Origin: Candidatus Moraniibacteriota bacterium
GTDB taxonomy: Bacteria > Patescibacteriota > Minisyncoccia > Moranbacterales > UBA1568
Direction of reading: 5' to 3'
Assembly: GCA_903893925.1 (NCBI GenBank)
Contig: CAITOC010000010.1
Span: forward strand, 1-59,473
Length of the DNA stretch: 59,473 nucleotides
In this document: positions 3,895 to 59,473 of the stretch, piece by piece
Layout of the letters: each line of letters starts with the position of its first letter
Numbering within the stretch: position 1 is the first letter of the stretch
Translations under genes and position numbers: made by a program
Notes under the pieces: generated by a model
Databases searched by the model: none
The model's input: only the letters and a program-made list of their open reading frames with translations
What the model was told of the DNA's origin: nothing

Positions 3895-4079
3895 TGAAAA
3901 CGACCCGACTTCAAGAGGGCGATGCGTACGATTCGACGGCATTCGTCGCCTATCAAAATCACGACATGAACAAACGCATCATCCTGCTTTTCGAAGGCTA
4001 AACCTTCGGAAGAGAATCTCAAAAGACTTCCCATTCAATGTCGGTTTCTGCTACACTGTCGATAACAAATCGATCGGAT

Positions 4080-26807: not shown

Positions 26808-26844
26808 AGTTATTTCGGCATAATTTAATTAATTTGGTATCACT

Positions 26845-30504: not shown

Positions 30505-30574
30505 ATACCAAATGAACTGAATCACTGTTACGTTCGGGAGTCGGACTCCTCCGGTAGCGATATACAACACATCA
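30505..30574 (+). repeat. ~90-nt hairpin repeat family, copy C (hairpin tip deleted)
   Basis: ataccaaatgaactgaatcactgttacgttcgggagtcggactcctccggtagcgatatacaacacatca. Confidence 0.8.
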
Positions 30575-31830: not shown

Positions 31831-31852
31831 TCGAACACAAAAATTATTGAAA

Positions 31853-33070
31853 ATGGCAACGAAAGACATAACAACATGTGCGACCCCGGCAGAAGCTGGA
31901 ATCGATATCGAGATAGGTCTCCTGATGACGTACATAAAGGAGGCGGCAAGAATTGCCGTTGAAAAGATCAAGGCGCAATTCTTCGTGATAAAACTCTGGT
32001 TGGCTGTCATCCTTCTCGGATACAGTCTCTTGTGCTTCACTGCCTCATATCATGAGTGGCATGGGATACCGGCACTGCTCTTCGTACTCCTCACACTGGG
32101 GAATGCGATCGTCGCCTTCTCTGCGAAAGGAATCGGCTACAGTGGGAGTTCAGGAGCCATCGTGAACGGGACGCCGGGAATGACCATCGGTCAGCTCCTC
32201 ACCGCTCCGTTCACCGATGAAAAATGGCCAGACTTCAAAACCAAAGACTTCCTGACGGCGGGGCTTGAGATGACGAAGAAGTTCTGGCTCGCCCAGTTGC
32301 ACCTGACAATCGTTGCTGGTCTGGTAGCGGAGTTCTCCGAACTCGTCACCCTCCATTCGATGGCCGGGGTAATAGTCATGCTTTTGCCGATTATCGTTCT
32401 TGTCGCTTTCTCCCTCACGGAAAAGGTGACGGAAACAAAGTGGTACAAGCGGATCGTCATCGGTATGTCCGTCCCGACACTCATTGTCGGGCTCGTGATG
32501 GCGATTTACCCGCTGACCCGCACCGAATCAATGGCGGAAAAGATCCAGAAGGAAAACGCTGTAAATAAGGACCTGGCCGCCGAAGAACGGCTCCAGGCGA
32601 TCTGGAAGAAGGTCCACGGGAATAAGGGGAGAAAAGGGGTGATGACAAAGGATGAGGAAATCGCCGTTAACAAAGCGGTGAACGAATCCGGCTCAGTGAT
32701 CAGCGCGATTAATACTCCTTTCACAAGCAGTTCCAAAAAAACATTCAGCGTGACCATCAAGGATCTCGGGTCGCATTCGTATCCCGTCCCGAACGGCACA
32801 TGGACGTTTCGACTCGTCGACGCAAGTCCGATAGTCTACGTCTATATACCGGATGCAAGCAGTAACACGGGAAAGAAAGCGGTGAGAAATGATCTGAAAG
32901 ACCCGTCGTACACGCTTGTTGCGGGAAATGGAACAGTGAACGGTGGTAAGATAACGGTGGCTGACGGGAAAGTCGCCTTTCGGCTTCGCGTCCCTCCAGA
33001 TACTGAAGAAAACCTGAAAACGGGAAACTTCAAGATCGGCGAATCGACGGTCAACGTCGCATTCGAATGA
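31853..33070 (+). CDS. Hypothetical polytopic membrane protein with C-terminal beta-rich soluble domain
   Basis: The ORF opens at TTG 31847; ATG 31853 is preferred. There are about 6 hydrophobic helices, then a coiled segment, then a ~110-aa T/V/G-rich C-terminal domain. Confidence 0.6.
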   Translation: MATKDITTCATPAEAGIDIEIGLLMTYIKEAARIAVEKIKAQFFVIKLWLAVILLGYSLLCFTASYHEWHGIPALLFVLLTLGNAIVAFSAKGIGYSGSSGAIVNGTPGMTIGQLLTAPFTDEKWPDFKTKDFLTAGLEMTKKFWLAQLHLTIVAGLVAEFSELVTLHSMAGVIVMLLPIIVLVAFSLTEKVTETKWYKRIVIGMSVPTLIVGLVMAIYPLTRTESMAEKIQKENAVNKDLAAEERLQAIWKKVHGNKGRKGVMTKDEEIAVNKAVNESGSVISAINTPFTSSSKKTFSVTIKDLGSHSYPVPNGTWTFRLVDASPIVYVYIPDASSNTGKKAVRNDLKDPSYTLVAGNGTVNGGKITVADGKVAFRLRVPPDTEENLKTGNFKIGESTVNVAFE

Positions 33071-33139: not shown

Positions 33140-34093
33140 TTATGCCGTTCCCGAAAGGAGCGCGGTGACAGTGCGGACAACGATGAGTGACAAGACGATG
33201 ACCGCGATACCCATGATTGCGAATTTCACGATACTCTTGGCCGTTTCGGCACGTTTCTCGTCACCTGCGGCGGCAAAGAACATGAATCCGCCGATGACGA
33301 GCATGATCATCGCGAGCAGTCCCGAAACGCCGAGAAGGAAGTTCAGGAGACCCTGGACGATTTCGACCACGGACTTGGCGCTGCTCACCTCGGTCGGCAC
33401 CTGCGCACTCCCCCATCCGAGTACGTCGCCGACCGCCTTAAGCAAAGACGGTGCGACCACGCCGATCGCGAGGCCGATCATCGCCGCGGTAATCATCTTC
33501 TTGGCAGTACCGATCTTCTTCTCATCGCCGGCCGACGTGATATAGAAGATGCCACCGAGCACGAGGAAGAGCAGTGCGAGCCAGACGATGATACCCTGGA
33601 AGGCCGTGAGGAACACCGCCGTCGCCCCCTGGACGGTATCGAATGCGAGTGGATTCGTGAATGTGACGGAAGAAGTGCCTCCGCCCGTCGTGCCGGTTCC
33701 GCAACATATCTGGCTCGCCGAAGTGCAGGTTCCCGATTGTATCGTCAGGCCTCCCGTACAGGTAGTCCCCGTCTGGCATGTCCCCGTACAGGCACCGCCA
33801 ACAGTCCCATAGGTGGCATCATAATTGGCATCGGGGACGGTAGCGAGAGGCGTGGCCGTCACGCCATATTGGAACTTCGGACGACCGGAACACTGTGAGT
33901 TACAAAGCTTCTGCGTATCCTCGAAAGAGGAAGAGTCTACCGTGGTGCCATCGGCCTGCACACAGGCGCAATTCATTCCCGCCGGCATGGTTGCCGCGAA
34001 AGCGGTCATCGGGACGACACCTGAGAAAAGAAAAACGAGCGAACCAAAAAGAAAGAAAGCAGAGCGAACGGATGATGGGATATTTGTATGCAT
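33140..34093 (-). CDS. Fused double T4SS-type (TrbC/VirB2-like) pilin with Cys-rich N-terminal head
   Basis: Signal peptide, then a Cys-rich ~130-aa region (CACVQADGT..CNSQC..), then two tandem two-helix pilin units, each centred on an (S/A)AGDEK(K/R) loop (YITSAGDEKKIGTAKK and FFAAAGDEKRAETAKS). Confidence 0.7.
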   Translation of the reverse strand: MHTNIPSSVRSAFFLFGSLVFLFSGVVPMTAFAATMPAGMNCACVQADGTTVDSSSFEDTQKLCNSQCSGRPKFQYGVTATPLATVPDANYDATYGTVGGACTGTCQTGTTCTGGLTIQSGTCTSASQICCGTGTTGGGTSSVTFTNPLAFDTVQGATAVFLTAFQGIIVWLALLFLVLGGIFYITSAGDEKKIGTAKKMITAAMIGLAIGVVAPSLLKAVGDVLGWGSAQVPTEVSSAKSVVEIVQGLLNFLLGVSGLLAMIMLVIGGFMFFAAAGDEKRAETAKSIVKFAIMGIAVIVLSLIVVRTVTALLSGTA

Positions 34094-34151
34094 ATTTTTT
34101 GATAAAACGTCCCGTAAGAAACGACTGCGAAAAAATATCGACTGGTATCAA

Positions 34152-34583
34152 TCAATAGGTCGTCGTCGAGGAACTTGCCGTGACGAGTTGCTCTATGGTG
34201 TAGACGACTACATAACCGAGGAGCGCGACCGCGACACCGATAATCGCATATTTGATATTCCCTTTTGCTGCTTCGGTCCCCTTCTCATCACCACCGGCCG
34301 TAAGGTATTGGAATCCGGCCACCACGAACATGATGATGGCGATAAATCCGAGCATGCCGAGGAGCCAGTTCATGACATTGGTAATCACCTGTCCCGCCGA
34401 CGTTTCCGGCAGGCCGGTCGACGTGCCGGAGGGGACGCAGACTCCGCCCATGGCAGTACTGTTGGCATCGCAGGTCACCGCGGCAAGAGCGCCGTGCGAT
34501 GCGAGGACCGCCGATACGAGGACCACGAGAGACAGGATACGAAGGCCGATCAGTCTGAGTGTTTTGGTATGATATACGTTCAT
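34152..34583 (-). CDS. T4SS-type (TrbC/VirB2-like) pilin
   Basis: ORF trimmed to ATG 34583 (signal MNVYHTKTLRLIGLRILSLVVLVSAVLASHGALA). Core NVMNWLLGMLGFIAIIMFVVAGFQYLTAGGDEKGTEAAK. Ends ...SSSTTTY. Confidence 0.7.
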   Translation of the reverse strand: MNVYHTKTLRLIGLRILSLVVLVSAVLASHGALAAVTCDANSTAMGGVCVPSGTSTGLPETSAGQVITNVMNWLLGMLGFIAIIMFVVAGFQYLTAGGDEKGTEAAKGNIKYAIIGVAVALLGYVVVYTIEQLVTASSSTTTY

Positions 34584-34643
34584 ATTTTTGTCTTCGATCG
34601 TCATCGACAGATGAAACTTTTTTGCTTGATCGATCCTGTACGC

Positions 34644-34679
34644 AAGGAGTTCGACTCCCTCTTGGGAGTCGAACTCCTT
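34644..34679. repeat. 16-bp-stem palindrome AAGGAGTTCGACTCCC tctt GGGAGTCGAACTCCTT
   Basis: Same arms as 16090-16123. It lies between two pilin genes. Confidence 0.6.
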
Positions 34680-34810
34680 ATAGGTGGTATACGGCAAACC
34701 AAATTATTTTAGCATGGGAGCGATCTTCCCATTCATCATACCGCACGGACAAAAAAAGACAACCCCGCTCATGCGGAGTCGCCCTCTTTTCTTGTTGTTG
34801 CCGACCGGAA

Positions 34811-35212
34811 TCAGTAACTGGTAGTGGCGGTGTTGGCTCCGAGGAGTCCGACCACCGTGTTGATGACCACATACCCGACAAGCGCCACGACGACAGCGAT
34901 GATGGCATACGTCATCATCGTCTTCGCCTTCTCGGTCTTTCCCTCGTCGCCGGCGGCGGTAAGATAGAGGATGCCCGCTATGACGAAAGAAATGATCGCA
35001 CCGATGCCGAGGATTCCCAGCACCCAGTTCATGACGGTAGTCAGGATCTGGCCGATGGAATTCTGAGTCATCCCACTGGAACTTGCCACGGAACTATATG
35101 AACTTCCGGTTCCGGGAACTGTTCCGAATCCATTTGTTTGTGCAAAAACCGATACCGGCGCCGCGAGTGTCGCGACGAGAACGCCATATCCGATTTGTTT
35201 CATTGATTTCAT
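34811..35212 (-). CDS. T4SS-type (TrbC/VirB2-like) pilin
   Basis: ORF trimmed to ATG 35212, preceded by AGGAGGTGA. Signal MKSMKQIGYGVLVATLAAPVSVFA. Core VMNWVLGILGIGAIISFVIAGILYLTAAGDEGKTEKAK. Ends ...NTATTSY. Confidence 0.7.
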   Translation of the reverse strand: MKSMKQIGYGVLVATLAAPVSVFAQTNGFGTVPGTGSSYSSVASSSGMTQNSIGQILTTVMNWVLGILGIGAIISFVIAGILYLTAAGDEGKTEKAKTMMTYAIIAVVVALVGYVVINTVVGLLGANTATTSY

Positions 35213-35255
35213 GCGTTCACCTCCTTTCCGTTTTGTGATTGTTTCGACGCGTTCA

Positions 35256-35540
35256 TCATACCATATCCGCAAGGGTCCGAACAATGATGAGCGCCGTAGC
35301 GACTACCGCCACGCCGATGACCGAATAGATCATAGCCTGCTTCGCCTGTTTCATGGCCGACTCGTTTCCTTGGGACGCAATGTAGAGAAACCCGGACACC
35401 GCGAATGAAAGCATCCCGACCACCCCGACTGCACCAAGGATGAATCCGAGTATGTTCGAGATGATCGTCGAGATCGGGACCGCGTCCTCGATCACGCCGG
35501 CGGCATGAACGACGGTCACGAACGAGAGAAATGCATGCAT
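35256..35540 (-). CDS. Short T4SS-type pilin paralogue
   Basis: 94 aa. ISNILGFILGAVGVVGMLSFAVSGFLYIASQGNESAMKQAK followed by a second helix. Confidence 0.65.
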   Translation of the reverse strand: MHAFLSFVTVVHAAGVIEDAVPISTIISNILGFILGAVGVVGMLSFAVSGFLYIASQGNESAMKQAKQAMIYSVIGVAVVATALIIVRTLADMV

Positions 35541-44603: not shown

Positions 44604-44689
44604 ATACCAAATGAACTGAATCACTGTTTCGTTCAGGAGTTCGCCCCGGCATTCGCGGGGCGAACTCCTCTGGTAGCGATATAACACAT
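44604..44689 (+). repeat. ~90-nt hairpin repeat family, copy D
   Basis: ataccaaatgaactgaatcactgtttcgttcaggagttcgccccggcattcgcggggcgaactcctctggtagcgatataacacat. A 14-bp stem AGGAGTTCGCCCCG/CGGGGCGAACTCCT is present. Confidence 0.8.
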
Positions 44690-44729
44690 TAGGTTGTTTC
44701 GGTATAAGTTGTCAGTTGTCAGTCTTCCT

Positions 44730-46253: not shown

Positions 46254-46497
46254 GGACCGTAGGGAGTCGAAAGTCCGTAAAGTCTCTAAGAGCCTATCCC
46301 AATAGGGTCTAAGCCGAAAATACGGTTTGTCGTCTGAAATCCGAAAATTTCGGCTGTAAACCCTTCAAACCTCCTCGGGTTAGTTAGTAGCCCTCGACGA
46401 TTTTTAGTGTTTTTCACCCAGAGGGTGACCAACCTCTGGTTGGCGCTCAAACGAAATGTACGGATTTCAGTTCTCCCCTTCCATTTTTTCGGAAACC

Positions 46498-47242: not shown

Positions 47243-49963
47243 CTATCTCCGCCTCGTCTCATCGTCCGCCGGAGCATTCGGGATAAGTGAGAACACGAAT
47301 CCGACCGTGAAGAGAAGGAGTCCGCCAGAAAGTATCATGCGGATTGCAAACGTCAAAGCTGGTGGGACGTATCCGGACAGAGCGGCATAGAATTTCTTCA
47401 CACCGGAATCAGCCGCCGTGGGGAACGCGATATTCGTCACCTGAACGGATTTCGACACCGTAACTTCCGCAGTCTTCGTAGCATCGATACCCCAGATGTT
47501 CTGAAGGGCAAGCCTCGTCGAGGCAGGTTGCGCCAAGACAGCCGAGACAGAGATATTGGCGACATCACCCGTATTCCCGCCAGAAGTCGAGGTATTATTG
47601 ATCTCCATCACAGCCCACTCCGGCTCGACATGCCCATTCACCTGCCATTGCCTGGTAGAAATATTGCCGGCAAATGACGGGACGAACCGTGCCTTCATAT
47701 GGATGCCGGCACTAGACGCCTTTTCGAAGAAATTCTCGCTATAATCATCGTTTGTCGCTCCATTGAGACCGACGTACTGCCCAAGATAACGTGGCCACAA
47801 GAGAGTCTTGTCGACCGATTCAATCACGATGTCTGGATTGACGATATTGAACATACGAGTCAGCGTGACCGCCTTTCCAGTCGACGTATTCACGGCATCG
47901 AGCTTCACGTTGATAGTCGTTCCAGCCTCACCGGTGACCGCAAAGAATGCCTTGGACCCGTCCGTACAGTCAGGAGAGATGGACGTATCGCAGGCCAGGG
48001 ATTTTCCATCGATCTGCCAGCTGAAATCCTTGAGGTCATTGGCCGTATTGTCTATCTTCAGACCGATAATCTCGTTTTTCATGACCCGGCACGAAATTCG
48101 GTCCAGGTTCGTCATAGCATCCTGTGCCGTCTGCGGATTTGTGACGTAGTCGCTGCATATCTCATGCCCAAGCGAGACCGCTGTACCTGAATCGTTCGCC
48201 GTCGCCGCATACGAGCGGATTTTTTTGTCGGAATTGGAAACCTTGATGATGACATCGCTATGACCCGTCCGGTCACCTTGCGAATTGAAATTCTCCGTCG
48301 CCGTCGAGGTGATCCGCATATAGACCGGATTGGACGAAGCGAACGCTCCCAGGATGCTGTCACCCATATTGAGCGGTATCGAGATCGAATTCAGACCATT
48401 CCCCTTGGACACAGAAAGGAGCCCGGCGGATTTCAAGGAGCCCGTAATATCCGTCGGGTTGTTCATACCGGCGATATCGCTCAATTCCACTTTCCATTCA
48501 TAGGTGACTTCGGAATCAGCCTTGCTGGAATTCGTAATAGAAGCGGTCGCCGTAACCGTGTCCCCCGATTTCTCGCCCGTCTTGTCATTCGTCGGGTTAT
48601 CCGGCGTGGCCGACACGTCGAGCTCTATATTCTTCGAATTCGTCTGTCCGGCACCAAGTGGGTCGACAAGGTTGTCCTTCAGACACTTATTGAAATCGTT
48701 CCGACCCATGCTGGTAGTGGGAATAGTCACGGCATATCCTTTGATCGAAGCAGTGTAACTTCCCGTGTGAACGACCCGACACCCGTCTCCGGAGAACGCC
48801 CACATGATCATCATTGAGGAATCGTCGTGTTTCGTCGAAAGCATGGATGTCCCTTCCACGACGAGGCCGATCTGGTCGCCTTGCTGATAATTCCAGGTAA
48901 ACGTATCGCGACCGAGACCGACGACGTTCGCCTCGTCCTTGTTCCCGTTTTTAGCCGTGTCCGGATCGGCAGGATTTGTCCCCCAGAATCGTTCCTCTCC
49001 CGCCGTGAACCTTCCGTCTCCGGTAGTGTATCCGTCCGCATCCGGAAACAGATGCGAACATTTGTCCGCCGGCGGAGTAGCATTCCCCTGACAGGTCATA
49101 TTATTCTCGACCGCCGGATCGTACACGTAATTGAAAACGGGGTTTCCCGTACTGGGATCCGTATACGGTGCGACACGACGCTGCACGGTGTCCGAGAGGC
49201 CGAAGGTGCCGGATGCGACCGACGGATTGACACAACGGGTCAATTGCGTGCCCGTACAAGACGGTGTGCCGTTATCACTGCAGTTTGGCGGACCGTCGAT
49301 CTGATAAGCCGCGGTCGAAGAATTGTCGGCTGCGATATTTTGCACCGCCGAAAGACACGACGCCTGATATCCGTCCGTACCACAAGTAAAGATAGCAGGC
49401 GAAGACGACAACGGACCGAGTTCATAGAAAGTCCCGTTCGAAGGATCCTTGATATAGCACCAGGAGTTGTCGACCGACGTCTTGTCACCTCCGCCATAGG
49501 GGGCTTTGTATCCGTCATCATCGTCTGCCCCGGGCAGAAACCGGTTCACATCCGCTCCATCGTTTGCAAGCATCCGCATCGCCTCGGTTTTCCAGTCCTC
49601 AGGGTTGTTTGATCCACCTTTCCGTTTCAGGAACCAGGTAAAATACAACTGATTGGTCGGATTCGAAAAGTACAATGGGAACGCCTTGGCTGTGACTTTC
49701 TGTCCTTCTTTCGGATCCGACGGGCTGAAAGAAAGTGATACCTCCGGCGAGTATGCCTTCGTAGATGCGACATTAAAACTCTCGCCGACATTCTGAACCG
49801 AACTCTGATCGACGTGAAAGGTGCTTAAAACATCACCTATAACACTCGATGTTGACGGAATGGAAAGCGCGAACACGGATGCGACCGGAAAGACCTGTCC
49901 TAGAAGAAAAACGGCGGCTATTCCTGCGGAGCATATTTTCCGACAAAGCGTGTTCTGTTTCAT
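47243..49963 (-). CDS. Large (906 aa) secreted surface protein with C-terminal TM helix and terminal basic cluster
   Basis: ORF trimmed to ATG 49963 (signal MKQNTLCRKICSAGIAAVFLLGQVFPVASVFA). The middle is Cys-rich. The C-terminus is ..SGYVPPALTFAIRMILSGGLLLFTVGFVFSLIPNAPADDETRRR. No known domain was recognised. Confidence 0.7.
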   Translation of the reverse strand: MKQNTLCRKICSAGIAAVFLLGQVFPVASVFALSIPSTSSVIGDVLSTFHVDQSSVQNVGESFNVASTKAYSPEVSLSFSPSDPKEGQKVTAKAFPLYFSNPTNQLYFTWFLKRKGGSNNPEDWKTEAMRMLANDGADVNRFLPGADDDDGYKAPYGGGDKTSVDNSWCYIKDPSNGTFYELGPLSSSPAIFTCGTDGYQASCLSAVQNIAADNSSTAAYQIDGPPNCSDNGTPSCTGTQLTRCVNPSVASGTFGLSDTVQRRVAPYTDPSTGNPVFNYVYDPAVENNMTCQGNATPPADKCSHLFPDADGYTTGDGRFTAGEERFWGTNPADPDTAKNGNKDEANVVGLGRDTFTWNYQQGDQIGLVVEGTSMLSTKHDDSSMMIMWAFSGDGCRVVHTGSYTASIKGYAVTIPTTSMGRNDFNKCLKDNLVDPLGAGQTNSKNIELDVSATPDNPTNDKTGEKSGDTVTATASITNSSKADSEVTYEWKVELSDIAGMNNPTDITGSLKSAGLLSVSKGNGLNSISIPLNMGDSILGAFASSNPVYMRITSTATENFNSQGDRTGHSDVIIKVSNSDKKIRSYAATANDSGTAVSLGHEICSDYVTNPQTAQDAMTNLDRISCRVMKNEIIGLKIDNTANDLKDFSWQIDGKSLACDTSISPDCTDGSKAFFAVTGEAGTTINVKLDAVNTSTGKAVTLTRMFNIVNPDIVIESVDKTLLWPRYLGQYVGLNGATNDDYSENFFEKASSAGIHMKARFVPSFAGNISTRQWQVNGHVEPEWAVMEINNTSTSGGNTGDVANISVSAVLAQPASTRLALQNIWGIDATKTAEVTVSKSVQVTNIAFPTAADSGVKKFYAALSGYVPPALTFAIRMILSGGLLLFTVGFVFSLIPNAPADDETRRR

Positions 49964-49977
49964 AACGTTTTCAGGAT

Positions 49978-50640
49978 TTATCGTATGACGAGGATAAGGA
50001 CATCGGACAGGAAGAGTATGAGCCATGCGGACGCCCAGGAGTAGGAGACGGATCTCGTATAGTGTGCGACGAATCCGGACGCAAGCGAGGCAAAGAGGAG
50101 TGGGACATCTTGCCAGGTGATTCCCCTTCCGGACACGGCCAGAAAGGAAGCAAAGAGTCCTGTCTGAAAGAATACTGCCCAAAGACCAGCGTTCCTGAGC
50201 CAAAGAATCAGCACGAATCCCCGGAAAAACACCTCGTAAAGAAACGAGATCGCCCCGACCAACACCACCTCATAGAAGAGGAAAAATGGGAATGATGTGC
50301 GAATCACTGCCGGAAGACGATACGATGCCGCAACCGGAAAAACATGGAACAAGACATACCAAATCGAGAGAATCGGGACGACAGCCAACAAGACGGCAAC
50401 GGGTCCGTACCGACGGATACTTCCCTGAAAACCGAGAGCGGAGAGTGGCTCTCGCAGTACGAGTCGTACGAAGAATATCGGCAATGCGACGAAAAAGGCC
50501 ACGCCGAGCAGGACGGATTGTATCGTCACATTCAACCGTGCATCCGCCGGGAAAAACGCATAGATCGCGAGTGTCGCCACGGCGAACAGTCCCGTCAGCA
50601 GGGACTTCTTCCATCTGGAAAGGAGAGGGAGTATATTCAT
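49978..50640 (-). CDS. Divergent CPBP (CAAX protease / Abi) family intramembrane protein
   Basis: Start set at ATG 50640. FLYEVFFRGF fits motif 1 with only one of the two Glu residues. AHYTRS sits where motif 3 HxxxN/D is expected. The motif 2 His was not seen. About 6 TM helices. Confidence 0.55.
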   Translation of the reverse strand: MNILPLLSRWKKSLLTGLFAVATLAIYAFFPADARLNVTIQSVLLGVAFFVALPIFFVRLVLREPLSALGFQGSIRRYGPVAVLLAVVPILSIWYVLFHVFPVAASYRLPAVIRTSFPFFLFYEVVLVGAISFLYEVFFRGFVLILWLRNAGLWAVFFQTGLFASFLAVSGRGITWQDVPLLFASLASGFVAHYTRSVSYSWASAWLILFLSDVLILVIR

Positions 50641-50651
50641 ACGTTTATTCC

Positions 50652-50660
50652 AGTATACCA
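50652..50660 (-). promoter_or_regulatory. Extended -10 box TGGTATACT
   Basis: It lies about 11 nt upstream of ATG 50640 and overlaps the longer ORF-track start, implying a near-leaderless transcript. Confidence 0.4.
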
Positions 50661-50701
50661 ATTCTTTCCTTATTTTTGAAGAAGAAGACCGCTTCGTTCA
50701 T

Positions 50702-51226
50702 TCACTTCGCCACGTCAGTCGTCTTCGTCGGCACCTTCAAAAGCCGGAGGAGAAACGCCGCAATCGCCTCAAACGGGATAACTTCTCCGATGATCGGTAT
50801 ACCCGAAAGAGCACCGGCTGCAAGCAAAATCCCCTCACGTTTCAAAAAAAGCTTTGATCGTTCGTAAAATGGGAGGTGCTGCGAATTTGGATCGAGGTAG
50901 ACGATTATCGTCTGTACTGCTGTAAATCCGAATGAGATAACCCAGGAAACGCCGGGAATCCATCCGAGTGCGAACGAGAGGAACCATTCGAGTAGTCCTG
51001 TTACGACGCCGAGCAGCATGGTCGTCGTCGATAATTTCCCGATTCCGGAGGCGCCGGCAACTTGAGGCAACGGTTTCCTGTTGTTCAATCGGGGAAGTCT
51101 CTCTTTCGAAACCGGATCCGCGGACGGTCGTGGACGAGATTCGTTCATATCCGACGAAGGGAGCCGGTCTTTCGAGGCCGCTTCGTCACGAGAAGCCGTT
51201 TCCTGTATATACAAACGATCAGTCAT
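50702..51226 (-). CDS. Hypothetical membrane protein (3-4 TM) at the distal end of the T4SS-like operon
   Basis: ORF trimmed to ATG 51226, downstream of the VirB4 stop at 51243. Hydrophilic N-terminus, then TMLLGVVTGLLEWFLSFALGWIPGVSWVISFGFTAVQTIIVYL. Confidence 0.55.
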   Translation of the reverse strand: MTDRLYIQETASRDEAASKDRLPSSDMNESRPRPSADPVSKERLPRLNNRKPLPQVAGASGIGKLSTTTMLLGVVTGLLEWFLSFALGWIPGVSWVISFGFTAVQTIIVYLDPNSQHLPFYERSKLFLKREGILLAAGALSGIPIIGEVIPFEAIAAFLLRLLKVPTKTTDVAK

Positions 51227-51242
51227 ACGGTCGTATTCCGGA

Positions 51243-53711
51243 TCAATAGGCCGAGCCCTCCGTCTCGTCGAATTCCTTCTTCGCCGCTTCGATCTCAAGC
51301 ATCTGGCGCGGATCGGTGGTGATGACTTGATCTTCGCTATAGGAGGCGATGACCTTGATCGCGACATGCTTCGTTCCCGCAAAGAAGATGCCTTCGCCCA
51401 CATTCGACTCGAGCAGGAGGAATTTTTCATGATCGGTCAGGTAGAACGTCTCGGCGATGAGATCGACCGAGGACGGCGACTGTTTCATAAGGAGTTGGAT
51501 CGACGAGTTCGTGACGATCGGCTTGCCATAGCGTGACGACATGAAGTCGCCGATATCCTGGGTGATAGTCGTCAGACCCGCATAGTATTTGCGACACCGC
51601 TTGGCGATACCGAACATGAAGGCGGCCGCATCCTCGTTTTGCATCATGATCCAGGCCTCGTCGACCACGATCATCCGCCGTTTGGTCTCGGCACGGATCT
51701 CGTTCCAGATGAACTGCAAGATGACATACATGGCGATCGGACGAAGTTCGTTTTCGAGATCGCGGATATTGAACACGACCATCTGATTGTCCATAGAGAC
51801 ATTCGTCTGATGGTTGAGGAACCCGCCGAACACCCCGTCGGTATACCGTTCCAGACGCATCGCGAGCGACTCGCCTCCCTCGAGGTTGCGCAGTACGGAA
51901 TAAAGATCGGACATGGTCGGGAACGATGTCGCGGTAAGCGCCCGAAAATCCGAAAGTTCGGTGATGTCGCGGATCGCGTATGTCTCACGGATCGCACGGT
52001 CAAGGACGGAATCCTCTTCCGGCGACACCGCCCCGAGCATGAGGTGCAGGAGACCGATCAGGTTGGCGATATGACTTCGGAACACGCCTTCGTCATCGTC
52101 ATTCTTGTTGATCTTCGGGAGGTCGAACGGATTCAAGTGTGCGTCGGATGAAAGCGATATCCCGAGGAATACGCCACCGACGGTATCGCACAAATGTTGA
52201 TATTCATTCTCCGGATCGATGATGATCACGTTGGTACCGAACATCATGGATCGCAATACCTCGAGCTTGATCGTATAGCTTTTTCCGGCACCGGACTTCG
52301 CGAAAACGACCATGTTCGCATTCTCCATCTTGAATCGGTCGAACAAGACGAGTGAATTGTTGTGACGATTGATGCCATAGAGAATTCCCTCGTTCGACGA
52401 GAGATCGGACGAGACGAACGGGAATGTCGTCGACAAGGGTGCGGTATTGAGGTTGTTCGCGATATCGAGCGTGTCCATACCCAAAGGCCGGGTCGAGACG
52501 AATCCCTGATCCATCCGCAACACGGCCGGCTTCGAGAAGACCAATTGGGCCTCAAGGATAGCCTCGATTCCCTGTGAGAGCTCATTAAGTGCCTTCTCAT
52601 CTTTCGCGTAAACGGTCATATAGACCCCGAAACGGAAGAATTTTTCCGTTCCCTGCTGGAGACTGTCGCGGAGTTCCTCGATATTTTGCAGTGCCGATTC
52701 GAGGACGGGATCGCGGATCTTCCCATCTTGAGATTCAATGGAGATTTGTGACTGGACCTGGGTCGCGGACCGGCGCAAGTCCTTCATGATCTCGCGCGTG
52801 TCGATCGGATGGATAAAGAACGAGATGTCCATCGGCGCATCCATATTGATGATGGACGAAAACCAGTTCGTTCCGAGGTATTTCGGATACGCCACGATGA
52901 AAAGCGTCCGGGCAAGCACGTCACCGACCTGTATGGAGGCTGGGGACAATCGGATAGCGGGCGGAGCAATCAGATCCTTCAAGGTCGCGATGCCCTGATT
53001 ATAGAGATCGCTGCTCTCGGAATGCTGTGTATTTCCGGGAAGCGAAAAGGTCGGCAGACCGAAACGCTTCGAAGCCGCTGATTTGGCTTTTTGAGCAACC
53101 AGTTGAGGCGCGACATACGACTCATGTGGCGTACTCGGTGGGGCGGACTGAGCAGTGGACTCCGTAAAACGTTCCGATGCAGCCATCGGAGGCTCATGAG
53201 TAATCGACGTTTGGGTATTCCATGCACCATATTTCGGAGCCGTCTCTTTGCCGGTTGGACCCGATACCATCGGTGCGGCTACCGACGAAGCAGGAACAGT
53301 GGGATTGGGAGCGACATACGCGGGAGCCGGGGAAGAAACAGGGCTCGCGGGAGCGAAAGCGGCATACGGATCGACGGCAGTGACCGGAGGCACATACCCG
53401 GTCGAACCAGAAGAACCGGTTTGCGGTGAAGCGTTCCCTCCCGTGGCGGATGACTGCAAACGATTTCCATTATCGGAAGCGCCTCCATACGGGTTTGCTG
53501 GCGGAAAGAACGGGTCCTGCGAACCGAAACCGGACGAATCTGCGGTCGGAAAAAATCCGGAGAGTCCCAAGACATGGGTTTCCTGAACTGGATGAGCAAC
53601 CGGCCCCGTGGAAACAGTGCTGACTGGAACGACACTTTCACGCACGGAAGACTCCGCCCGATCAGAATGGCGCTCTTCCCTGTCCGTGAATACGATGCTG
53701 TGCTTTTTCAT
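51243..53711 (-). CDS. virB4: VirB4/TrbE/PrgJ-type T4SS ATPase with ~250-aa P/S/A-rich N-terminal extension
   Basis: ORF trimmed to ATG 53711, 5 nt after the upstream stop. Walker A VVFAKSGAGKSY, IIIDPENEY, Walker B-like MIVVDEAW, ITQD. The N-terminal-domain pattern is IQVGDVLARTLFIVAYP. Confidence 0.85.
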   Translation of the reverse strand: MKKHSIVFTDREERHSDRAESSVRESVVPVSTVSTGPVAHPVQETHVLGLSGFFPTADSSGFGSQDPFFPPANPYGGASDNGNRLQSSATGGNASPQTGSSGSTGYVPPVTAVDPYAAFAPASPVSSPAPAYVAPNPTVPASSVAAPMVSGPTGKETAPKYGAWNTQTSITHEPPMAASERFTESTAQSAPPSTPHESYVAPQLVAQKAKSAASKRFGLPTFSLPGNTQHSESSDLYNQGIATLKDLIAPPAIRLSPASIQVGDVLARTLFIVAYPKYLGTNWFSSIINMDAPMDISFFIHPIDTREIMKDLRRSATQVQSQISIESQDGKIRDPVLESALQNIEELRDSLQQGTEKFFRFGVYMTVYAKDEKALNELSQGIEAILEAQLVFSKPAVLRMDQGFVSTRPLGMDTLDIANNLNTAPLSTTFPFVSSDLSSNEGILYGINRHNNSLVLFDRFKMENANMVVFAKSGAGKSYTIKLEVLRSMMFGTNVIIIDPENEYQHLCDTVGGVFLGISLSSDAHLNPFDLPKINKNDDDEGVFRSHIANLIGLLHLMLGAVSPEEDSVLDRAIRETYAIRDITELSDFRALTATSFPTMSDLYSVLRNLEGGESLAMRLERYTDGVFGGFLNHQTNVSMDNQMVVFNIRDLENELRPIAMYVILQFIWNEIRAETKRRMIVVDEAWIMMQNEDAAAFMFGIAKRCRKYYAGLTTITQDIGDFMSSRYGKPIVTNSSIQLLMKQSPSSVDLIAETFYLTDHEKFLLLESNVGEGIFFAGTKHVAIKVIASYSEDQVITTDPRQMLEIEAAKKEFDETEGSAY

Positions 53712-53715
53712 AGAA

Positions 53716-54402
53716 TCAACGGTTGGAAAGTTCCACTTGATCGATATTTCGCATGATGGTCGTCGTAAAGACCGAAGGATTGTACGTGTTGTACAAAAGT
53801 TCGATAAGCTCCTCGGTGCCAAGCATGCTCGTCCGGACACCGGTACCCGAAAGCGCGGCGGAAACCTGTTCGGCCCGTTGCAAAAGCTGGTTCCGATATG
53901 TCTCGAACTCTCCACCGGGAATCACCGTACCCGTTTTCGGCTGAAGCATTCCGGTCAGCTTCCCTATCAATCCACCATCTTGTGTTTCCGACGGAGCGAA
54001 TGGGATTACGACATAAAAGAATTTCGACATGATATTCGATACCTCGGTCAGGCTTTGCACGAAATTCCGGTACTCCGAGATCTGAAATCGAAGCAGTTCG
54101 TTTTCCTGATGTTTTTCCTGCTCCGCGAGAGACTCAAGGTACGGCTCGATATGAAACCGCCTGGAATGCACCACGATCTGAAGCGGGAAATCGAGCGAGT
54201 TTAGAAATCCTTGATACTGCCCGATGATGGCATCCTGTTCTTCGCTTGATTTAAGATCGAAGTTGATGGAAGAAGCAAGTAAAACACAACGGATCGATCC
54301 GTTGCGAAGCACGATGACGCCGTCGCGTACGTCCTTGACGTCCACGTACTTCTGCGTGCTCGATGCGTCCGACACGGTTTTTTTCGGCGTAAGAAATTCC
54401 AT
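53716..54402 (-). CDS. Stand-alone protein resembling the N-terminal domain of Gram-positive VirB4/TraE ATPases
   Basis: DVKDVRDGVIVLRNGSIRCVLLASSINFDLKSSEEQDAII parallels the N-terminal pattern of VirB4-like proteins (I.dG.i....g.y..ile..pinf.l.seeEq). Confidence 0.5.
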   Translation of the reverse strand: MEFLTPKKTVSDASSTQKYVDVKDVRDGVIVLRNGSIRCVLLASSINFDLKSSEEQDAIIGQYQGFLNSLDFPLQIVVHSRRFHIEPYLESLAEQEKHQENELLRFQISEYRNFVQSLTEVSNIMSKFFYVVIPFAPSETQDGGLIGKLTGMLQPKTGTVIPGGEFETYRNQLLQRAEQVSAALSGTGVRTSMLGTEELIELLYNTYNPSVFTTTIMRNIDQVELSNR

Positions 54403-54585
54403 AGATTCCGTTTATATTCATTTCTTCGTTCCTCAACTCGTGACTTCGTTCCCGTTGTAAGTAATAAGTGGTCAGTTGTCAGTTTTTTGACTTTCGCCCT
54501 CGTAAAGCCTCTCCGACTCGGCCACGGGGCATGTTTTTGACTTGCGACCTTACGGACTTTACAGACCTTGTGGACTTTCAACTCC
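54403..54585 (-). repeat. Oriented intercistronic module (GACTT array + 35-nt conserved hairpin core + GTCAGTT heptamers), copy 1
   Basis: The core 54497-54532 matches 55169-55203 with 3 mismatches by eye. GAC starts fall at 54539, 54546, 54555, 54564 and 54573 (spacing 7, 9, 9, 9). Confidence 0.7.
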
Positions 54586-54978
54586 CTATCGTCCGTCCAT
54601 CATCTTCGCGACTCTCCGTATCTCGTCTTGGGTCACGGTCCTCGCCTGAATTGGAGTCGTCTTCTCCACTCTTTTCATTGCGACCGGAGACGGAATAGCG
54701 GTAGGTCGCCTCCACATGAGCACCTTCGGCCGAAAGAGAAAAAAGAAGGCTTGGATGACATACGAAATGAGCGGCTGACCGTTCGGTCGATAGAAGGCGA
54801 GTAGGACGAACACGATGACGATCGGAACAGCGATAATATACGTTGCCGGTCCGGGAAACAGAACCGAGACGACCAGTATGGCCGCGCCCATTCCCATCAT
54901 CCAGAACAACTGTTTCACCGTAAGCGGTCCGGCAACCTTGTCCTCGACATCTATGAATTGCGGTACATTGAACATCAT
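54586..54978 (-). CDS. PrgI family (VirB3-like) T4SS membrane protein
   Basis: MMFNVPQFIDVEDKVAGPLTVKQLFWMMGMGAA followed by two TM helices, the PrgI N-terminal signature as I recall it. Confidence 0.6.
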   Translation of the reverse strand: MMFNVPQFIDVEDKVAGPLTVKQLFWMMGMGAAILVVSVLFPGPATYIIAVPIVIVFVLLAFYRPNGQPLISYVIQAFFFLFRPKVLMWRRPTAIPSPVAMKRVEKTTPIQARTVTQDEIRRVAKMMDGR

Positions 54979-55002
54979 AACATGAAATCGAATGATGAAG
55001 AT

Positions 55003-55011
55003 ATTGTATCA
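55003..55011 (-). promoter_or_regulatory. Extended -10 box TGATACAAT
   Basis: It lies 24 nt upstream of the PrgI-like ATG (54978). Confidence 0.4.
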
Positions 55012-55120
55012 GTAAACTTTCTCGAATCACCCCGCCGCACACGCTTTACACTTTTTGTTTTTCACTTTCCATTTCCTTATTCCCAATCTTTACTGACTTT
55101 CGACTTTATGGGCTTTTAAC

Positions 55121-55261
55121 GTAGTCTTCATTTCCTCGTCCCCGTTGTCAGTTGTCAGTTCACTCTCGACCCCGTAAACCTCTCCGACTCGGTCACGGGG
55201 CATACTTTCGACTGTATAGACTTTATTAACTTCGTAGACTTTCAACTCTGTTCCCTTGTTC
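55121..55261 (-). repeat. Oriented intercistronic module, copy 2
   Basis: cccgttgtcagttgtcagtt...ccccgtaaacctctccgactcggtcacggggcat...gactgtatagactttattaacttcgtagactttcaactc. GAC/AAC starts fall at 55210, 55219, 55228 and 55237 (9-nt spacing). Confidence 0.7.
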
Positions 55262-56716
55262 CTATCCTCTCAGATCCACCGTCCTTCCCGTGTCATCATC
55301 CGGTTTCTTTTTCTCCTCGCGAATACCAACCGGATGGATATGGAACGGGTTTCTATCCGAGGACGCCAAGGGAATCAGGTTCGCGTTACCGAAAATCGGG
55401 ATCGCCGACGGCAACGTGGGACTGTGTGATAAGGAATCGTCAGCCTCATCCGTCTCAGAATCATGAATCGAAAATTTTCCTTCCTCTGATTCGATCGGGA
55501 GCGCATGACTCGAGGAAAACGAGAATGTTCCGCCGACCGGAAGATCGGGTGGCGGTTCCGGCGCAAAGGAGACGGGACGCCGGACCGGAGCCTGTGGCGG
55601 GGTCGGCAATCCGGCAATCGGAGCAGATGGAGTTGGAGGAGTGACGTTTTGGGAAGGTGCCGGAGCGGAGAACGTCGCTTCTCGTGAAGGAGCGGTATTC
55701 GGAAGGTACGTGGCGACGGTCGGTATCGGCGGAGCGGCAAATACGGGAGTATCATGAAATGGGGATGTCATGGGTCTGATCTGCGAAGGAGGCCTTCGTA
55801 CCGGCACGACGGGCCGTACTGGCACGAAATCGGACTGTGAAGCAGTCATCGGGACAGATGTCGGAACAGGTCTTGGAACAGGGATAGGCGTGACGACAGG
55901 AATTTCCCGAGGTACAGCGACTTGGGCCGGCGCTTTGGGTGCTACGGGTACCGACGCGAATCCCGGGAACACGATTTCCGTTTTTTCCGTATCGATATCG
56001 AGCGGGGCGTTCTCCTCGATCGAACGGAGGATGATATTGATCCGCTCACGTTCTTCCGAAGACAGTCGCTTCCCGTTTTCCGAATCGAAGAGGAACTTCC
56101 CGCGGATCATCGGATCATGATGCCCGACGCCGAGTTCATCGCGATAGACCCGGATCCAGTTCGCCAGGCTCGGCCGAGCCGGTTCCGACTGGTTCCGAAG
56201 CTTGATACGCTCTTTCGTTATTTGTTGCTCCCCGAGTCGCGGGTATTTCCCGATCGCGGACAAAAGCGCCAGACGCTCCATCAGACTGTCAATAATGTTC
56301 GGTTTTTCATTTTTATCTGCGGGCCTCACTGCCAAAATTTCCTTTTGGAACGATTCTATCATTCCCTGAACATTCTGCTGATCGGATTTATTTGCTGAAA
56401 AATGCGAATAAATATTATTTCCACACTCCTGGAGAGACCACTCGTGGAAGTAGAACTTTCGTACCGCTACACTTATATATGCGGTTTCTCCATCAGGAAG
56501 ACCCCACTTCTGCCCATAATTATAAATAGCCTCAGGAATTTCCCTGGCCGTAATAATGTCTTGAATCTCGGGAGGAAGGGAATCATATTTCTCCCATATC
56601 GCATCGTCCTCTTCAGAGGTAGTTCGATACTTTCCATCCCTCTCCGTAACCGAAGCAAGCATCGGAAAATAACACCACTGGTTCTCGTATTCTTTTTTGT
56701 TTATTCCACCATTCAT
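55262..56716 (-). CDS. Hypothetical protein: ~250-aa globular N-terminal part and proline-rich C-terminal half
   Basis: 484-aa ORF located between the VirB6-like and PrgI-like genes. The P-rich tracts read PVAPKAPAQVAVPREIPVVTPIPVPRPVPTSVP... No known domain was recognised. Confidence 0.6.
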   Translation of the reverse strand: MNGGINKKEYENQWCYFPMLASVTERDGKYRTTSEEDDAIWEKYDSLPPEIQDIITAREIPEAIYNYGQKWGLPDGETAYISVAVRKFYFHEWSLQECGNNIYSHFSANKSDQQNVQGMIESFQKEILAVRPADKNEKPNIIDSLMERLALLSAIGKYPRLGEQQITKERIKLRNQSEPARPSLANWIRVYRDELGVGHHDPMIRGKFLFDSENGKRLSSEERERINIILRSIEENAPLDIDTEKTEIVFPGFASVPVAPKAPAQVAVPREIPVVTPIPVPRPVPTSVPMTASQSDFVPVRPVVPVRRPPSQIRPMTSPFHDTPVFAAPPIPTVATYLPNTAPSREATFSAPAPSQNVTPPTPSAPIAGLPTPPQAPVRRPVSFAPEPPPDLPVGGTFSFSSSHALPIESEEGKFSIHDSETDEADDSLSHSPTLPSAIPIFGNANLIPLASSDRNPFHIHPVGIREEKKKPDDDTGRTVDLRG

Positions 56717-56779
56717 ACAAATCTTTTATACAGAGCCAAATTCCATCAACTACAATTTTAACTGTCTTCAAAAACGTTT

Positions 56780-59107
56780 TTATGGATTTAACCCGACCGC
56801 CCTCCAGGCGTGCTTCTGATCACCTTTCAGGTTCTTATAAGCTTCTTGCATATCCTGAATCGACCACTCTCCCGTGGTGTGAAATTTATTCTCTATGTAA
56901 CGTTGTAAATTGGCATTCATCGGCGTACTTTTATCACCATGGAAGTCCTTCATTTTCCCGATATCCGACGCTGTCATTTTATCAAAATGCTCAATATAAA
57001 CATCTTCAACCCTCCTTGTACCAAGATTGTTTGCGATTTCATGATCAATAATCGGCTTCAATCGACCTTCTTTCCTCAGTCTCCCATCGAGCTTTTCTTT
57101 CACCTGAGCCTGAAGGGCCGCGTTTTTCTTGAGCTCGGGCCTATTTAAGAGCGCCGTATACTGCGTCAAATCCATCTTCATCGCATCGCCGTCAACCTTA
57201 TCGAGAAGCGTAGCGATCGATTTGAAATCGTCTCCCAAATTGCCGACTGATTCAACGAGCTTGTCCGCTTGCTGAATAACTTTTTTATCGACCTTACGGA
57301 TAATATCAGCCTTCCCTTCAGGGCTTTTCACGGCCGCGATGGCCGAATCGAGGTCGGCCTGATTGCGGATGGCATCCTTTTTGACAAGCATCCTCGCTGC
57401 TGCCTCTCGCTGCGCCTCCGAAGCCTTCGCATGCGTCGGATGGCTGGGATCAATATATTCACGAAGCTTTGCCTCATCATGTTTCTTCTCCTCGAACTCT
57501 TTCTCAGCTTCTGCGACGTTACGCTTGTGGATTTCGGTAGCAGCACTTGCCTTTCCTGCTTTCAGTCCTTTTTCCGCTATGCTCTTCGCCTTCAATTCCT
57601 GGTCCTTCTTGCGTTCATCGGCCTTACCCATATGCCTGATAACGGCGGCCCCCTTCTCTCCTCCGATATTCTTACCGAAAAGCTGGCCTGACTTCGGAAC
57701 GTTTTTCAACGCCGCACCGGTTCCCTTGGCATATGCGCCTATCCGATTTGCCTGACCGAGTGTCCCCACTTGAAGAGTCGCCTTTCCTCCCCATTTCGCG
57801 GCATTTCTTCCGGTTTTTGAAGCGAATTTCTGCGCGGAGCCGATGACTTTGTCCGCACCCGCAATACCGAAGTTCTTCCCGACGGTGATGGACATCCAGA
57901 TGAAGATAATCGGGACAGCGAAGACGGTCAGGCTTGCCAAATTGACAGACGACGCCAAAGAAGCGGAGTTCTTGGCCGCAATCGCGTCCAAAGCCGTCCG
58001 TGTCGCATTGTCGACTTGGAACGCCTGCATGACCTTCACGGCGACAAGGAGCATGAGCGCGGCCGTCGGTCCGAAGAAGGCATTGGAAAGAAGTTTTTTC
58101 CACCAGTCGCTCGCAAGAGATGCGAACCACGGGATAGCGGTCCCGATAAATCCGATCGGCGAGAAGATCACGAGTGCCAGAAGCGTGATGGCCCGGATAA
58201 ACAGCAGTATCGAAAGCGACATGACGGAAATACCGAAGATGAACACGAAGATCGTCGCCTGTATGATCTGACGAGCCAAATCCGCGCCCCCTTTGAGAGA
58301 ACTGTCGTAACCGGTCACGCTCGGCAGAAGGACCGTCTTGAGCGAAGCGGCGGTAAAAAACGACGACGCCAGCTTGCCTCCTGCACCGGTAGCGCTTCCC
58401 GGGGCGATACTGTTGAGGAAAAAGTACATCGGCACGTTCGCCAGGTCGATGATGAATCGTGACACCGGAAAACTGAAGTTGACGAGAAGCGCCATGAGCA
58501 CGAGTTGCCACAGGAGCTTCTTGTAGTTGTAGGCCTGCACTTGGAATATCGTCGCGAACGCGATGAAGAGGATGATCAGGATGAAGAACAGGTTGAAGAA
58601 GTCCCGTACCATCTTCCACAGATCATAGACCGCTTTGAGATTGAAGAGTCCGGTAAATGCGACCGGATCGAGCACGAACTCAAGCATGGTCGACCCGATA
58701 GAAACAGTGAGTCCGGCGATATTGAATATCGTATACAAAAGAGCATTGAACACCCACATGATACTGTCTCCCAGCGAGCTTACTGCACCGGAGACAGAGG
58801 ACGTTACCGCGCCAGCTATCTCTTGGGCCGTCGATAGGTTTTCGTAGTTATACAAGACACCCGGATATTGAGCGCTGTAGGTAGTGTGACAGGTATTGCT
58901 ACACTCCAATTCCGTCTGTTTCGTCCCGAGATTTTGTATGACGGTACCATTCGCTTGCTTACATATACACGTCCCTGACTTACTAGGATCTGCGGCAGCG
59001 AAAGCAGGCATTGGAGCAATGCCTGCGAAAAGAAAAATGTATGCGAAAAAGAGCACCGAGAGAAAGGCGCCAGCAGGGAAAGAATGAATGTTTTTCTTTT
59101 TTTTCAC
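56780..59107 (-). CDS. VirB6/TrbL-like polytopic T4SS channel candidate with Cys-motif N-terminal head and ~300-aa K/E-rich cytoplasmic tail
   Basis: GTG start at 59107 with a signal-like N-terminus. CICKQANGT..CSNTC motif. About 7-8 TM helices between residues ~100 and 480. A long charged C-terminal region follows. The assignment rests on architecture and context, not a motif. Confidence 0.6.
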   Translation of the reverse strand: MKKKKNIHSFPAGAFLSVLFFAYIFLFAGIAPMPAFAAADPSKSGTCICKQANGTVIQNLGTKQTELECSNTCHTTYSAQYPGVLYNYENLSTAQEIAGAVTSSVSGAVSSLGDSIMWVFNALLYTIFNIAGLTVSIGSTMLEFVLDPVAFTGLFNLKAVYDLWKMVRDFFNLFFILIILFIAFATIFQVQAYNYKKLLWQLVLMALLVNFSFPVSRFIIDLANVPMYFFLNSIAPGSATGAGGKLASSFFTAASLKTVLLPSVTGYDSSLKGGADLARQIIQATIFVFIFGISVMSLSILLFIRAITLLALVIFSPIGFIGTAIPWFASLASDWWKKLLSNAFFGPTAALMLLVAVKVMQAFQVDNATRTALDAIAAKNSASLASSVNLASLTVFAVPIIFIWMSITVGKNFGIAGADKVIGSAQKFASKTGRNAAKWGGKATLQVGTLGQANRIGAYAKGTGAALKNVPKSGQLFGKNIGGEKGAAVIRHMGKADERKKDQELKAKSIAEKGLKAGKASAATEIHKRNVAEAEKEFEEKKHDEAKLREYIDPSHPTHAKASEAQREAAARMLVKKDAIRNQADLDSAIAAVKSPEGKADIIRKVDKKVIQQADKLVESVGNLGDDFKSIATLLDKVDGDAMKMDLTQYTALLNRPELKKNAALQAQVKEKLDGRLRKEGRLKPIIDHEIANNLGTRRVEDVYIEHFDKMTASDIGKMKDFHGDKSTPMNANLQRYIENKFHTTGEWSIQDMQEAYKNLKGDQKHAWRAVGLNP

Positions 59108-59190: not shown

Positions 59191-59473
59191 CATTACATGA
59201 CATATAAAAAATACGTACGCTAAGCCGTATACTGGATAGACGATGTCCTATCCGATGATCCGCTTATTGAGACGAAGCTCAGAGCAAACCGGACTCGTGA
59301 TCACCTCCCCGTTCCCGTTATACTCAGTCACGTTAGAAACTGAAACCATATCAAATACGTCTGTCTTTGCGAGCCCATCCTCGGGTAGCCTGCCCCGCGT
59401 ATGCCGGGGTGGCAATCCAGAGTCCTAGACCGCTTCTCCGCCAGCTTGCGGACTCGCGGAGACGGAGGGAAGC

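Follow-up and report, generated by a model that had tools for sequence, protein, structure and literature searches.

Introduction

Patescibacteria commonly carry type IV secretion systems (T4SSs), and the locus analysed here belongs among them. Quinonero-Coronel et al. (2025) surveyed 3,035 Patescibacteria genomes and found VirB4 in 2,417 (PMC12102498). Most of these VirB4s form one clade nested in the mating-pair-formation class MPF-FATA, with genes for TrsD, PrgI/VirB3, VirB6 and VirB2-like pilins usually nearby and a split into TrsD and VirB4 as the normal state (PMC12102498). The loci often lie near dnaA, and in Paceibacteria VirB1 homologues are linked to virB4 (PMC12102498). Homologues of the type IV coupling protein (T4CP) are common yet far from virB4, only 109 relaxases occur in the 3,035 genomes, and no PrgB-type adhesin was found (PMC12102498). 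Here we describe such a gene cluster in a window of 59,473 bp, one entire contig (CAITOC010000010.1) of a Candidatus Moraniibacteriota bacterium.

Function has been addressed in Saccharibacteria. Wang et al. (2023) found the T4SS cluster and its pilins (SEML1_0006-0019) essential for epibiotic growth of S. epibionticum and suggested protein export or another non-DNA role (PMC10633639). For Moranbacteria, Table S3 of the 2025 survey lists genes 293 (VirB6), 295 (VirB3), 296 (TrsD) and 297 (VirB4) of GCA_000990175.1; gene 294 is unannotated, and T4CP-profile matches lie hundreds of genes off (PMC12102498).

A known secretion system in a lake-water Moranbacterium

The locus adds one more example to those already published; it is no novel machine reduced to a minimum. 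A preliminary description, made from the letters alone, had treated it as a minimal T4SS-like operon. The order VirB6, unannotated gene, VirB3, TrsD, VirB4 in Table S3 is identical to the one found here, gene 294 occupying the position of our 484-amino-acid (aa) family. The preliminary interpretation is in essence already in print, and the system is less novel than was assumed. We give a probability of roughly 85% to the reading that the locus is a core chromosomal, vertically inherited, pilus-forming host-interaction T4SS of the published Patescibacteria lineage, derived from MPF-FATA conjugation machinery of monoderm bacteria.

Eight co-oriented minus-strand genes at 47243-59107 form the block. 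Six of them, at 50702-59107, had been reported at these same coordinates under names (VirB6-like, 484-aa, PrgI/VirB3, VirB4-N-domain, VirB4, small membrane protein) that family and fold searches bear out. The features are as follows.

47243-49963, minus strand: cysteine-rich secreted surface protein, 906 aa (signal peptide, C-terminal membrane anchor)
49978-50661, minus strand: divergent CPBP/Rce1-like polytopic membrane protein, 220-227 aa (PF02517 in orthologues)
50702-51226, minus strand: small membrane protein (174 aa when counted from the first ATG, 105 aa according to gene callers)
51243-53711, minus strand: VirB4 ATPase, 822 aa (NF045971, P-loop_TraG, PrgJ alignment)
53716-54402, minus strand: TrsD-type protein, 228 aa, the VirB4 N-terminal domain as its own gene (NF041427, PF26593, PrgJ alignment)
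54586-54978, minus strand: PrgI/VirB3-like membrane protein, 130 aa (PF12666, two membrane helices)
55262-56716, minus strand: soluble, lineage-conserved protein, 484 aa (orthologue alignment, AlphaFold2 model, no family)
56780-59107, minus strand: extended VirB6-like polytopic membrane protein, 775 aa (helices, AlphaFold2 model, Foldseek, weak hidden Markov model (HMM) matches)
33140-35540, minus strand: four VirB2-like T4SS pilin genes, for a 317-aa double pilin and proteins of 143, 133 and 94 aa (PF18895)
59319-59473, no strand: high-copy repeat, the assembly break at the contig end (word depth)

The source is a lake-water Moranbacterium of the class Paceibacteria (Patescibacteria, the candidate phyla radiation), and the setting is chromosomal. 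Sequencing runs that carry the locus are lake and freshwater metagenomes. Family scans of the rest of the window find housekeeping genes (tig, nusA, infB, cca, thrS, rny, gpmI and ilvC), and the GC content of the T4SS cluster is the same as that of the rest of the contig, uniform and without anomaly. In one same-species assembly, yidC-dnaA-dnaN-dciA adjoins virB6, which matches the near-origin position reported for the phylum (PMC12102498).

The motor is a VirB4 encoded by two genes

VirB4 is identified by family, motif and alignment. The 822-aa protein scores 365.8 bits against NCBIfam NF045971 (the CD1110 family; cut-off 325) and matches Pfam P-loop_TraG at E=6e-29; the TraC-F and VirB4_CagE models score far under their cut-offs. 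Its motifs are intact (Walker A SGAGKS, Walker B VVDEAW), and the preliminary call of a VirB4 with a GAGKS Walker A holds. A disordered N-terminal extension of ~230 aa, rich in proline, serine and alanine and variable among relatives, precedes the middle and ATPase domains. The core (residues 243-779) aligns to residues 223-772 of PrgJ, the VirB4 of the enterococcal plasmid pCF10, with only 26% identity (E=2e-43). Among plasmid VirB4s the best matches, which are Firmicutes or Actinobacteria proteins throughout, reach only 29-36% identity with the core. Across the 80 best genome loci, all chromosomal and all from Moranbacteria/Moraniibacteriota and related Paceibacteria, core identity is 63-83%.

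The 228-aa protein supplies the missing N-terminal part of this motor. It matches the TrsD/TraD family NF041427 (E=3e-6), the TraC-like family PF26593 and the N-domain of VirB4 models, and it aligns to PrgJ residues 61-134. On PrgJ, the TrsD alignment ends before that of VirB4 begins, so we read the two as one VirB4 split into two genes, like TrsD and TrsE of the staphylococcal plasmids pGO1 and pSK41. The alternative of TrsD as a paralogue of the VirB4 N-domain was rejected, since the two proteins cover successive PrgJ segments without overlap. TrsD is present at 79 of the 80 loci and is 50-85% identical across the 80 species.

This conservation decides against decay. A split VirB4, long low-complexity inserts and low VirB6 HMM scores might suggest a decaying remnant without function. 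Every open reading frame (ORF) is intact, however, as are the Walker motifs, and the division into TrsD plus VirB4 is the normal published state. Together with the identities of VirB4 and TrsD across 80 species, these points leave the remnant reading effectively refuted, with next to no probability.

PrgI completes the set directly upstream of virB4. The genes for TrsD and PrgI/VirB3 both lie there, and the 130-aa PrgI scores 37.6 bits against PF12666 (cut-off 27; E=3e-9), above the gathering score. The NF045971 match, TrsD and PrgI together uphold the Gram-positive (MPF-FATA) affinity proposed in the preliminary description. The PrgH-PrgI-PrgJ-PrgK set of pCF10 is laid out alike: the PrgI gene immediately precedes that of VirB4, a VirB6-type polytopic protein is encoded before them, and a CHAP wall hydrolase is included. 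The MPF-FATA plasmid systems differ in carrying a T4CP (PcfC), a relaxase (PcfG), the VirB8-like PrgL and LPXTG adhesins, none of which we found here, and in having no VirB2 pilins, which the genome of the Moranbacteria locus does have.

Two long intergenic gaps lie within the operon, at 54403-54585 and 55043-55261. They have GACTT-rich arrays in common, with a similar core …CCCGTTGT.AGT…CTCTCCGACTCGG.CACGGGGCAT….

An extended VirB6-like protein is recognised by fold and position

The 775-aa protein is accepted as an extended VirB6-like channel protein because of its predicted fold taken with its gene position. It comprises a signal peptide, a short head with four cysteines, a bundle of membrane helices (~111-446) and a charged, helical C-terminal domain (~484-775), with 7-8 predicted membrane helices in all and a tail of ~300 aa; gene callers place its start 32 codons later. 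An AlphaFold model built from 42 orthologues has a predicted local distance difference test score (pLDDT) of 80, and the tail (484-775) is well predicted. In Foldseek the bundle matches the R388 TrwI/VirB6 chains 7o3v_G and 8rt9_F with probability 0.99 and a TM-score of 0.48-0.51, the E-value being only 0.3-0.5. The membrane-helix bundle thus superposes on TrwI/VirB6 (PDB 7O3V, 8RT9) at a TM-score of ~0.5, with ~10-12% sequence identity; the Moranbacteria protein differs by its helical cytoplasmic tail and its extracellular four-cysteine head.

Sequence searches point the same way less firmly. NCBIfam CD3337/EF1877 matches at E=1e-3, far under its cut-off, and Pfam leaves the window protein unmatched and finds TrbL (E=4e-4) in two of its 42 orthologues. 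Aligned with hhalign, the family pairs with Orf15 of Tn916 at 71% probability (E=3.7e-5) over the same membrane-helix hairpin, and with PrgH at 1.4%. A PDB profile search with the family returned low-complexity or chance matches at most. The VirB6/TrbL call of the preliminary description thus stands on fold and on its place beside VirB3 and VirB4, with weak HMM support.

Right after the signal peptide, the VirB6-like protein (58900-59030) and the 317-aa double pilin (33900-34010) have a four-cysteine module in common. It reads CICKQANGT...C..TC in the former and CACVQADGT...C..QC in the latter, a pattern of CxCxQA[ND]GT, 13-14 residues and CxxxC. The VirB6 orthologues of loci L003 and L011 have a looser head, CxC...CxxxC, which most others lack.

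The gene block is collinear across Moranbacteria

The block is retained as a unit in related species. From VirB6 through the 484-aa protein, PrgI, TrsD, VirB4 and a membrane ORF to the CPBP-like and 906-aa proteins, the genes are collinear and co-oriented in all 51 loci of the main Moranbacteria subgroup, many of which also retain the same cca and infB neighbours. The preliminary description had listed a CPBP-family gene and the 906-aa gene merely as lying downstream. Both are present, and the conserved cluster extends through them: the CPBP-like gene occurs in 46 of the 46 loci that have enough downstream sequence, and the 906-aa gene in 39 of 40 such loci when ORFs are searched and in all 40 with tblastn.

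A second Moranbacteria subgroup has another arrangement. There the order is pilin, PrgI, TrsD, VirB4, with the pilin gene directly upstream of prgI. At least one locus of this subgroup, L076, has CHAP and VirB6-like genes next to each other several kb downstream of virB4.

A hydrolase gene is expected beyond a repeat that ends the contig

The contig probably stops short of a conserved gene. The window ends in a repeat, its last ~150 nt (59319-59473), 366 nt upstream of virB6. Depth rises there from ~24 to >1000 and, summed over four lake metagenomes, reaches 20-50 times the depth of the flank; many contigs break at this repeat. It has no second copy within the window and no Rfam match. A reading of the last 366 nt as the C-terminus of a CHAP protein was checked and proved wrong.

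Another assembly continues past this point. Its locus, L081, is 99.886% identical to the window over 15.8 kb and carries a LysM-LysM-CHAP gene (L081:3126-4283) ~1.1 kb upstream of virB6. A LysM-CHAP hydrolase gene lies on the same strand, 2 kb or less upstream, in 31 of 37 related species. PrgK, the hydrolase of pCF10, matches these LysM-CHAP proteins by phmmer (E=5e-9 and weaker).

The hydrolase therefore seems to be missing because the contig stops in the repeat, before the conserved hydrolase position. The preliminary description had taken the system to lack a cell-wall hydrolase and called it minimal. The first claim is an artefact of the contig end; the second fails as well, since the conserved cluster starts with a PrgK/VirB1-like hydrolase. 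Assemblies differ upstream of the repeat, so a LysM-CHAP gene next to virB6 is only putative for this strain. Whichever assembly is right, absence of a hydrolase is not a property of the system. A component that appears to be missing at a contig end should not be taken as truly absent.

Further genes recur upstream. Eleven loci among L001-L053 were examined upstream of the LysM-CHAP gene: nine carry an Xer-like tyrosine recombinase gene there, divergent in most, and it also occurs in L081. Five of the eleven have a gene for a UvrD/PcrA helicase still further upstream.

Neither relaxase nor coupling protein was found near virB4

The cluster is not flanked by a DNA-processing module. Among the window ORFs covered by family scans, none matched a T4CP, relaxase, VirB11 or VirB8-10 family. 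In single-query phmmer searches of the window and 82 loci, PcfC, Tn916 Orf21, PcfG, MobT and a MOBP relaxase gave no match; very divergent members may escape such a screen. Within ~10 kb of virB4, no T4CP or relaxase was found in 80 relatives. The preliminary description had reported that a VirD4/TraG coupling ATPase, a relaxase, VirB11 and VirB8/9/10 are lacking in these 59 kb, and both kinds of search agree. Its wording "without coupling protein" applies to the window and should not be extended to the genome, given T4CP-profile matches far from virB4 in two Moranbacteria (PMC12102498).

These results bear on whether the cluster is the mating-pair-formation part of an integrative and conjugative element (ICE), with coupling protein, relaxase and oriT elsewhere on the replicon and DNA transferred to other cells. 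VirB4, PrgI, TrsD and the CHAP hydrolase are homologous to Gram-positive conjugation parts, the recombinase gene upstream of the hydrolase is of a kind that could pass for an ICE integrase, and T4CP-profile matches occur elsewhere in Moranbacteria genomes. Yet the cluster keeps one chromosomal position and gene order beside housekeeping genes across ~50 species, shows no GC anomaly, has no relaxase or T4CP within ~10 kb in any of the 80 species, and belongs to a phylum with very few relaxases (PMC12102498). The recombinase and UvrD/PcrA are conserved neighbours, which fits a housekeeping Xer-type enzyme, and both are probably housekeeping genes. We consider an ICE very improbable. That the locus is not a classical conjugation machine had been proposed from the letters, and with no relaxase or T4CP nearby it agrees with both published studies (PMC12102498, PMC10633639).

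Import of DNA deserves slightly more credit and is still unlikely. Such a machine would resemble archaeal Ced or Helicobacter ComB, with DNA or nucleotides entering the cell from its host or its surroundings. De novo synthesis of nucleotides is absent from Patescibacteria. T4SS loci of the class ABY1 adjoin comF, recG and radA (PMC12102498). VirB4 is weakly similar to CedB, far below threshold (E=2e-14; 53 bits, where the cut-off is 700). Its best family match, however, is the conjugative CD1110 type and not Ced, and family scans found no competence or recombination genes in the cluster. Competence of S. epibionticum requires type IV pili and ComEC; according to a 2025 review, comEC deletion ends competence and keeps viability, whereas the T4SS is essential.

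Pilins and four lineage-specific proteins

VirB2-like pilins are encoded in the same window. All four genes at 33140-35540 match the T4SS_pilin family PF18895 (E=4e-17 to 4e-11) and lie 15 kb from virB4, the distance given in the preliminary description. No VirB5 partner was found.

The 484-aa protein holds a constant place between virB6 and prgI. It has no membrane helix. In the AlphaFold2 model, residues 1-255 are folded (pLDDT ~95) and mostly helical; residues 256-484 are disordered and proline-rich, with the conserved short motifs SFSSxHxLPxE and NPFxIxP. The protein matches no Pfam or NCBIfam family, and its folded N-domain has no credible PDB match by fold or sequence. A profile of the family matches 976 cluster representatives (50% identity) at E≤1e-3. 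Two candidate identities, a VirB8/PrgL-like protein and a hydrolase, were rejected: there is no membrane helix, a phmmer search with PrgL is blank, and the fold is mostly helical.

The small membrane protein behind virB4 diverges fast in sequence and keeps its position. It has a hydrophilic N-terminus and ~3 membrane helices. A same-strand ORF with 2-5 membrane helices follows virB4 in 48 of 49 loci, with sequence similarity detected in only 7.

The CPBP-like protein lacks a conserved histidine. CPBP proteases have the catalytic motifs EExxxR, FxxxH and HxxxN/D. PF02517 matches 22 of 42 orthologues near the gathering score (best E=2.8e-7) and leaves the window protein itself unmatched. Across the 42 orthologues E143, R147 and Q166 are invariant, glutamine 166 standing where histidine is expected; no histidine is conserved anywhere, and of the CPBP motifs only xE143xxxR147 is kept. 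With no conserved histidine, it is unlikely to be a canonical protease.

The 906-aa protein follows closely: its gene begins 15 nt after the CPBP-like gene. The alignment has ~18 invariant cysteines, and no Pfam family matches in 33 orthologues. Relatives fall into 313 protein clusters at 90% identity; each is an unnamed hypothetical, and all come from Moranbacteria. PDB profile searches with the 484-aa, CPBP-like and 906-aa families gave low-complexity or chance matches or nothing.

Other features of the window

Scans for regulatory elements and structured RNAs gave little. Rfam finds tRNAs only and has no match in the 1.1-kb gap that separates virB6 from the hydrolase gene; promoter and terminator scans performed no better than on shuffled sequence. 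A dispersed repeat of ~166 nt, 91.6% identical, links that gap (L081:4306-4471) with window positions 46310-46473 downstream of cca. Shorter copies lie near 26712-26823, 30505-30541 and 44604-44705.

Some genes outside the cluster also stand out. Three ORFs of 634, 319 and 407 aa, at 16146-18050 (minus strand) and 30871-33070 (plus strand), match no Pfam family at E≤1e-3. A 1061-aa protein at 4038-7223 (plus strand) has five Lamin Tail Domains and a PKD domain and is another large probable surface protein.

Discussion

The Moranbacteria cluster has much in common with the published Patescibacteria T4SS. Its MPF-FATA-affine VirB4 is preceded by TrsD and PrgI/VirB3, and a VirB6-like protein, arrays of PF18895 VirB2-like pilins and a VirB1-like hydrolase linked to virB4 accompany it (PMC12102498, PMC10633639). 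It is likewise chromosomal, near dnaA in one assembly and without a relaxase or T4CP beside virB4. It differs in adding the 484-aa, small membrane, histidine-less CPBP-like and 906-aa proteins, which the text of PMC12102498 does not name, and in having pilins 15 kb away; essentiality has been shown in Saccharibacteria only.

We propose how the machine may work. The LysM-CHAP hydrolase, encoded just past the contig end, would open the cell wall locally. The extended VirB6-like protein would form a membrane platform or channel, and PrgI/VirB3 would tether the ATPase at the membrane. TrsD and VirB4, acting as a single two-gene motor, would extract VirB2-like pilins and assemble a pilus or conduit to the host cell, presumably in a role other than DNA transfer. 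The 484-aa, small membrane, CPBP-like and 906-aa proteins may serve as lineage-specific accessory parts, with the 906-aa surface protein as the likeliest contact or adhesin component.

Several observations weigh against this reading as a whole. Synteny alone ties the accessory genes, as putative members, to the T4SS. The VirB6 call depends on a modelled fold and sub-threshold HMM matches. In this species the link between hydrolase and virB6 spans the repeat, and it is there that another assembly joins yidC-dnaA-dnaN-dciA. RNA runs containing the locus were looked for, and none was found. The phmmer screen for T4CPs and relaxases used single queries. T4CP-profile matches do occur elsewhere in two Moranbacteria genomes (PMC12102498, Table S3), and such distant matches leave some room for a role in DNA transfer or DNA uptake.

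We offer a more specific and tentative proposal, which we think less likely to be right than wrong. The Moranbacteria T4SS may be a unit of nine genes, four of which are specific to the lineage and lack a described T4SS counterpart. In this proposal the 906-aa protein would be a host-contact adhesin or tip, the CPBP-like protein a non-catalytic membrane partner or a sorting factor for the conserved motif and the membrane helix at the C-terminus of the 906-aa protein, and the 484-aa protein either an adaptor that replaces the coupling protein or a secreted substrate. If this is true, the 906-aa protein would be an adhesin or tip that escaped the 2025 survey.

The Patescibacteria T4SS is one of a small number of machines with a demonstrated essential role in epibiotic life, and this locus leaves that picture unchanged. 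What it adds is modest: a nine-gene block with four unnamed partners, a CPBP-like partner without its histidine, and a hydrolase gap explained as an artefact. It defines a sharply conserved Moranbacteria version of the system, with a hydrolase, an extended VirB6 and four unnamed partners, one of them a large cysteine-rich surface protein. The block thereby provides concrete candidates for the parts that may make host contact and recruit substrates.

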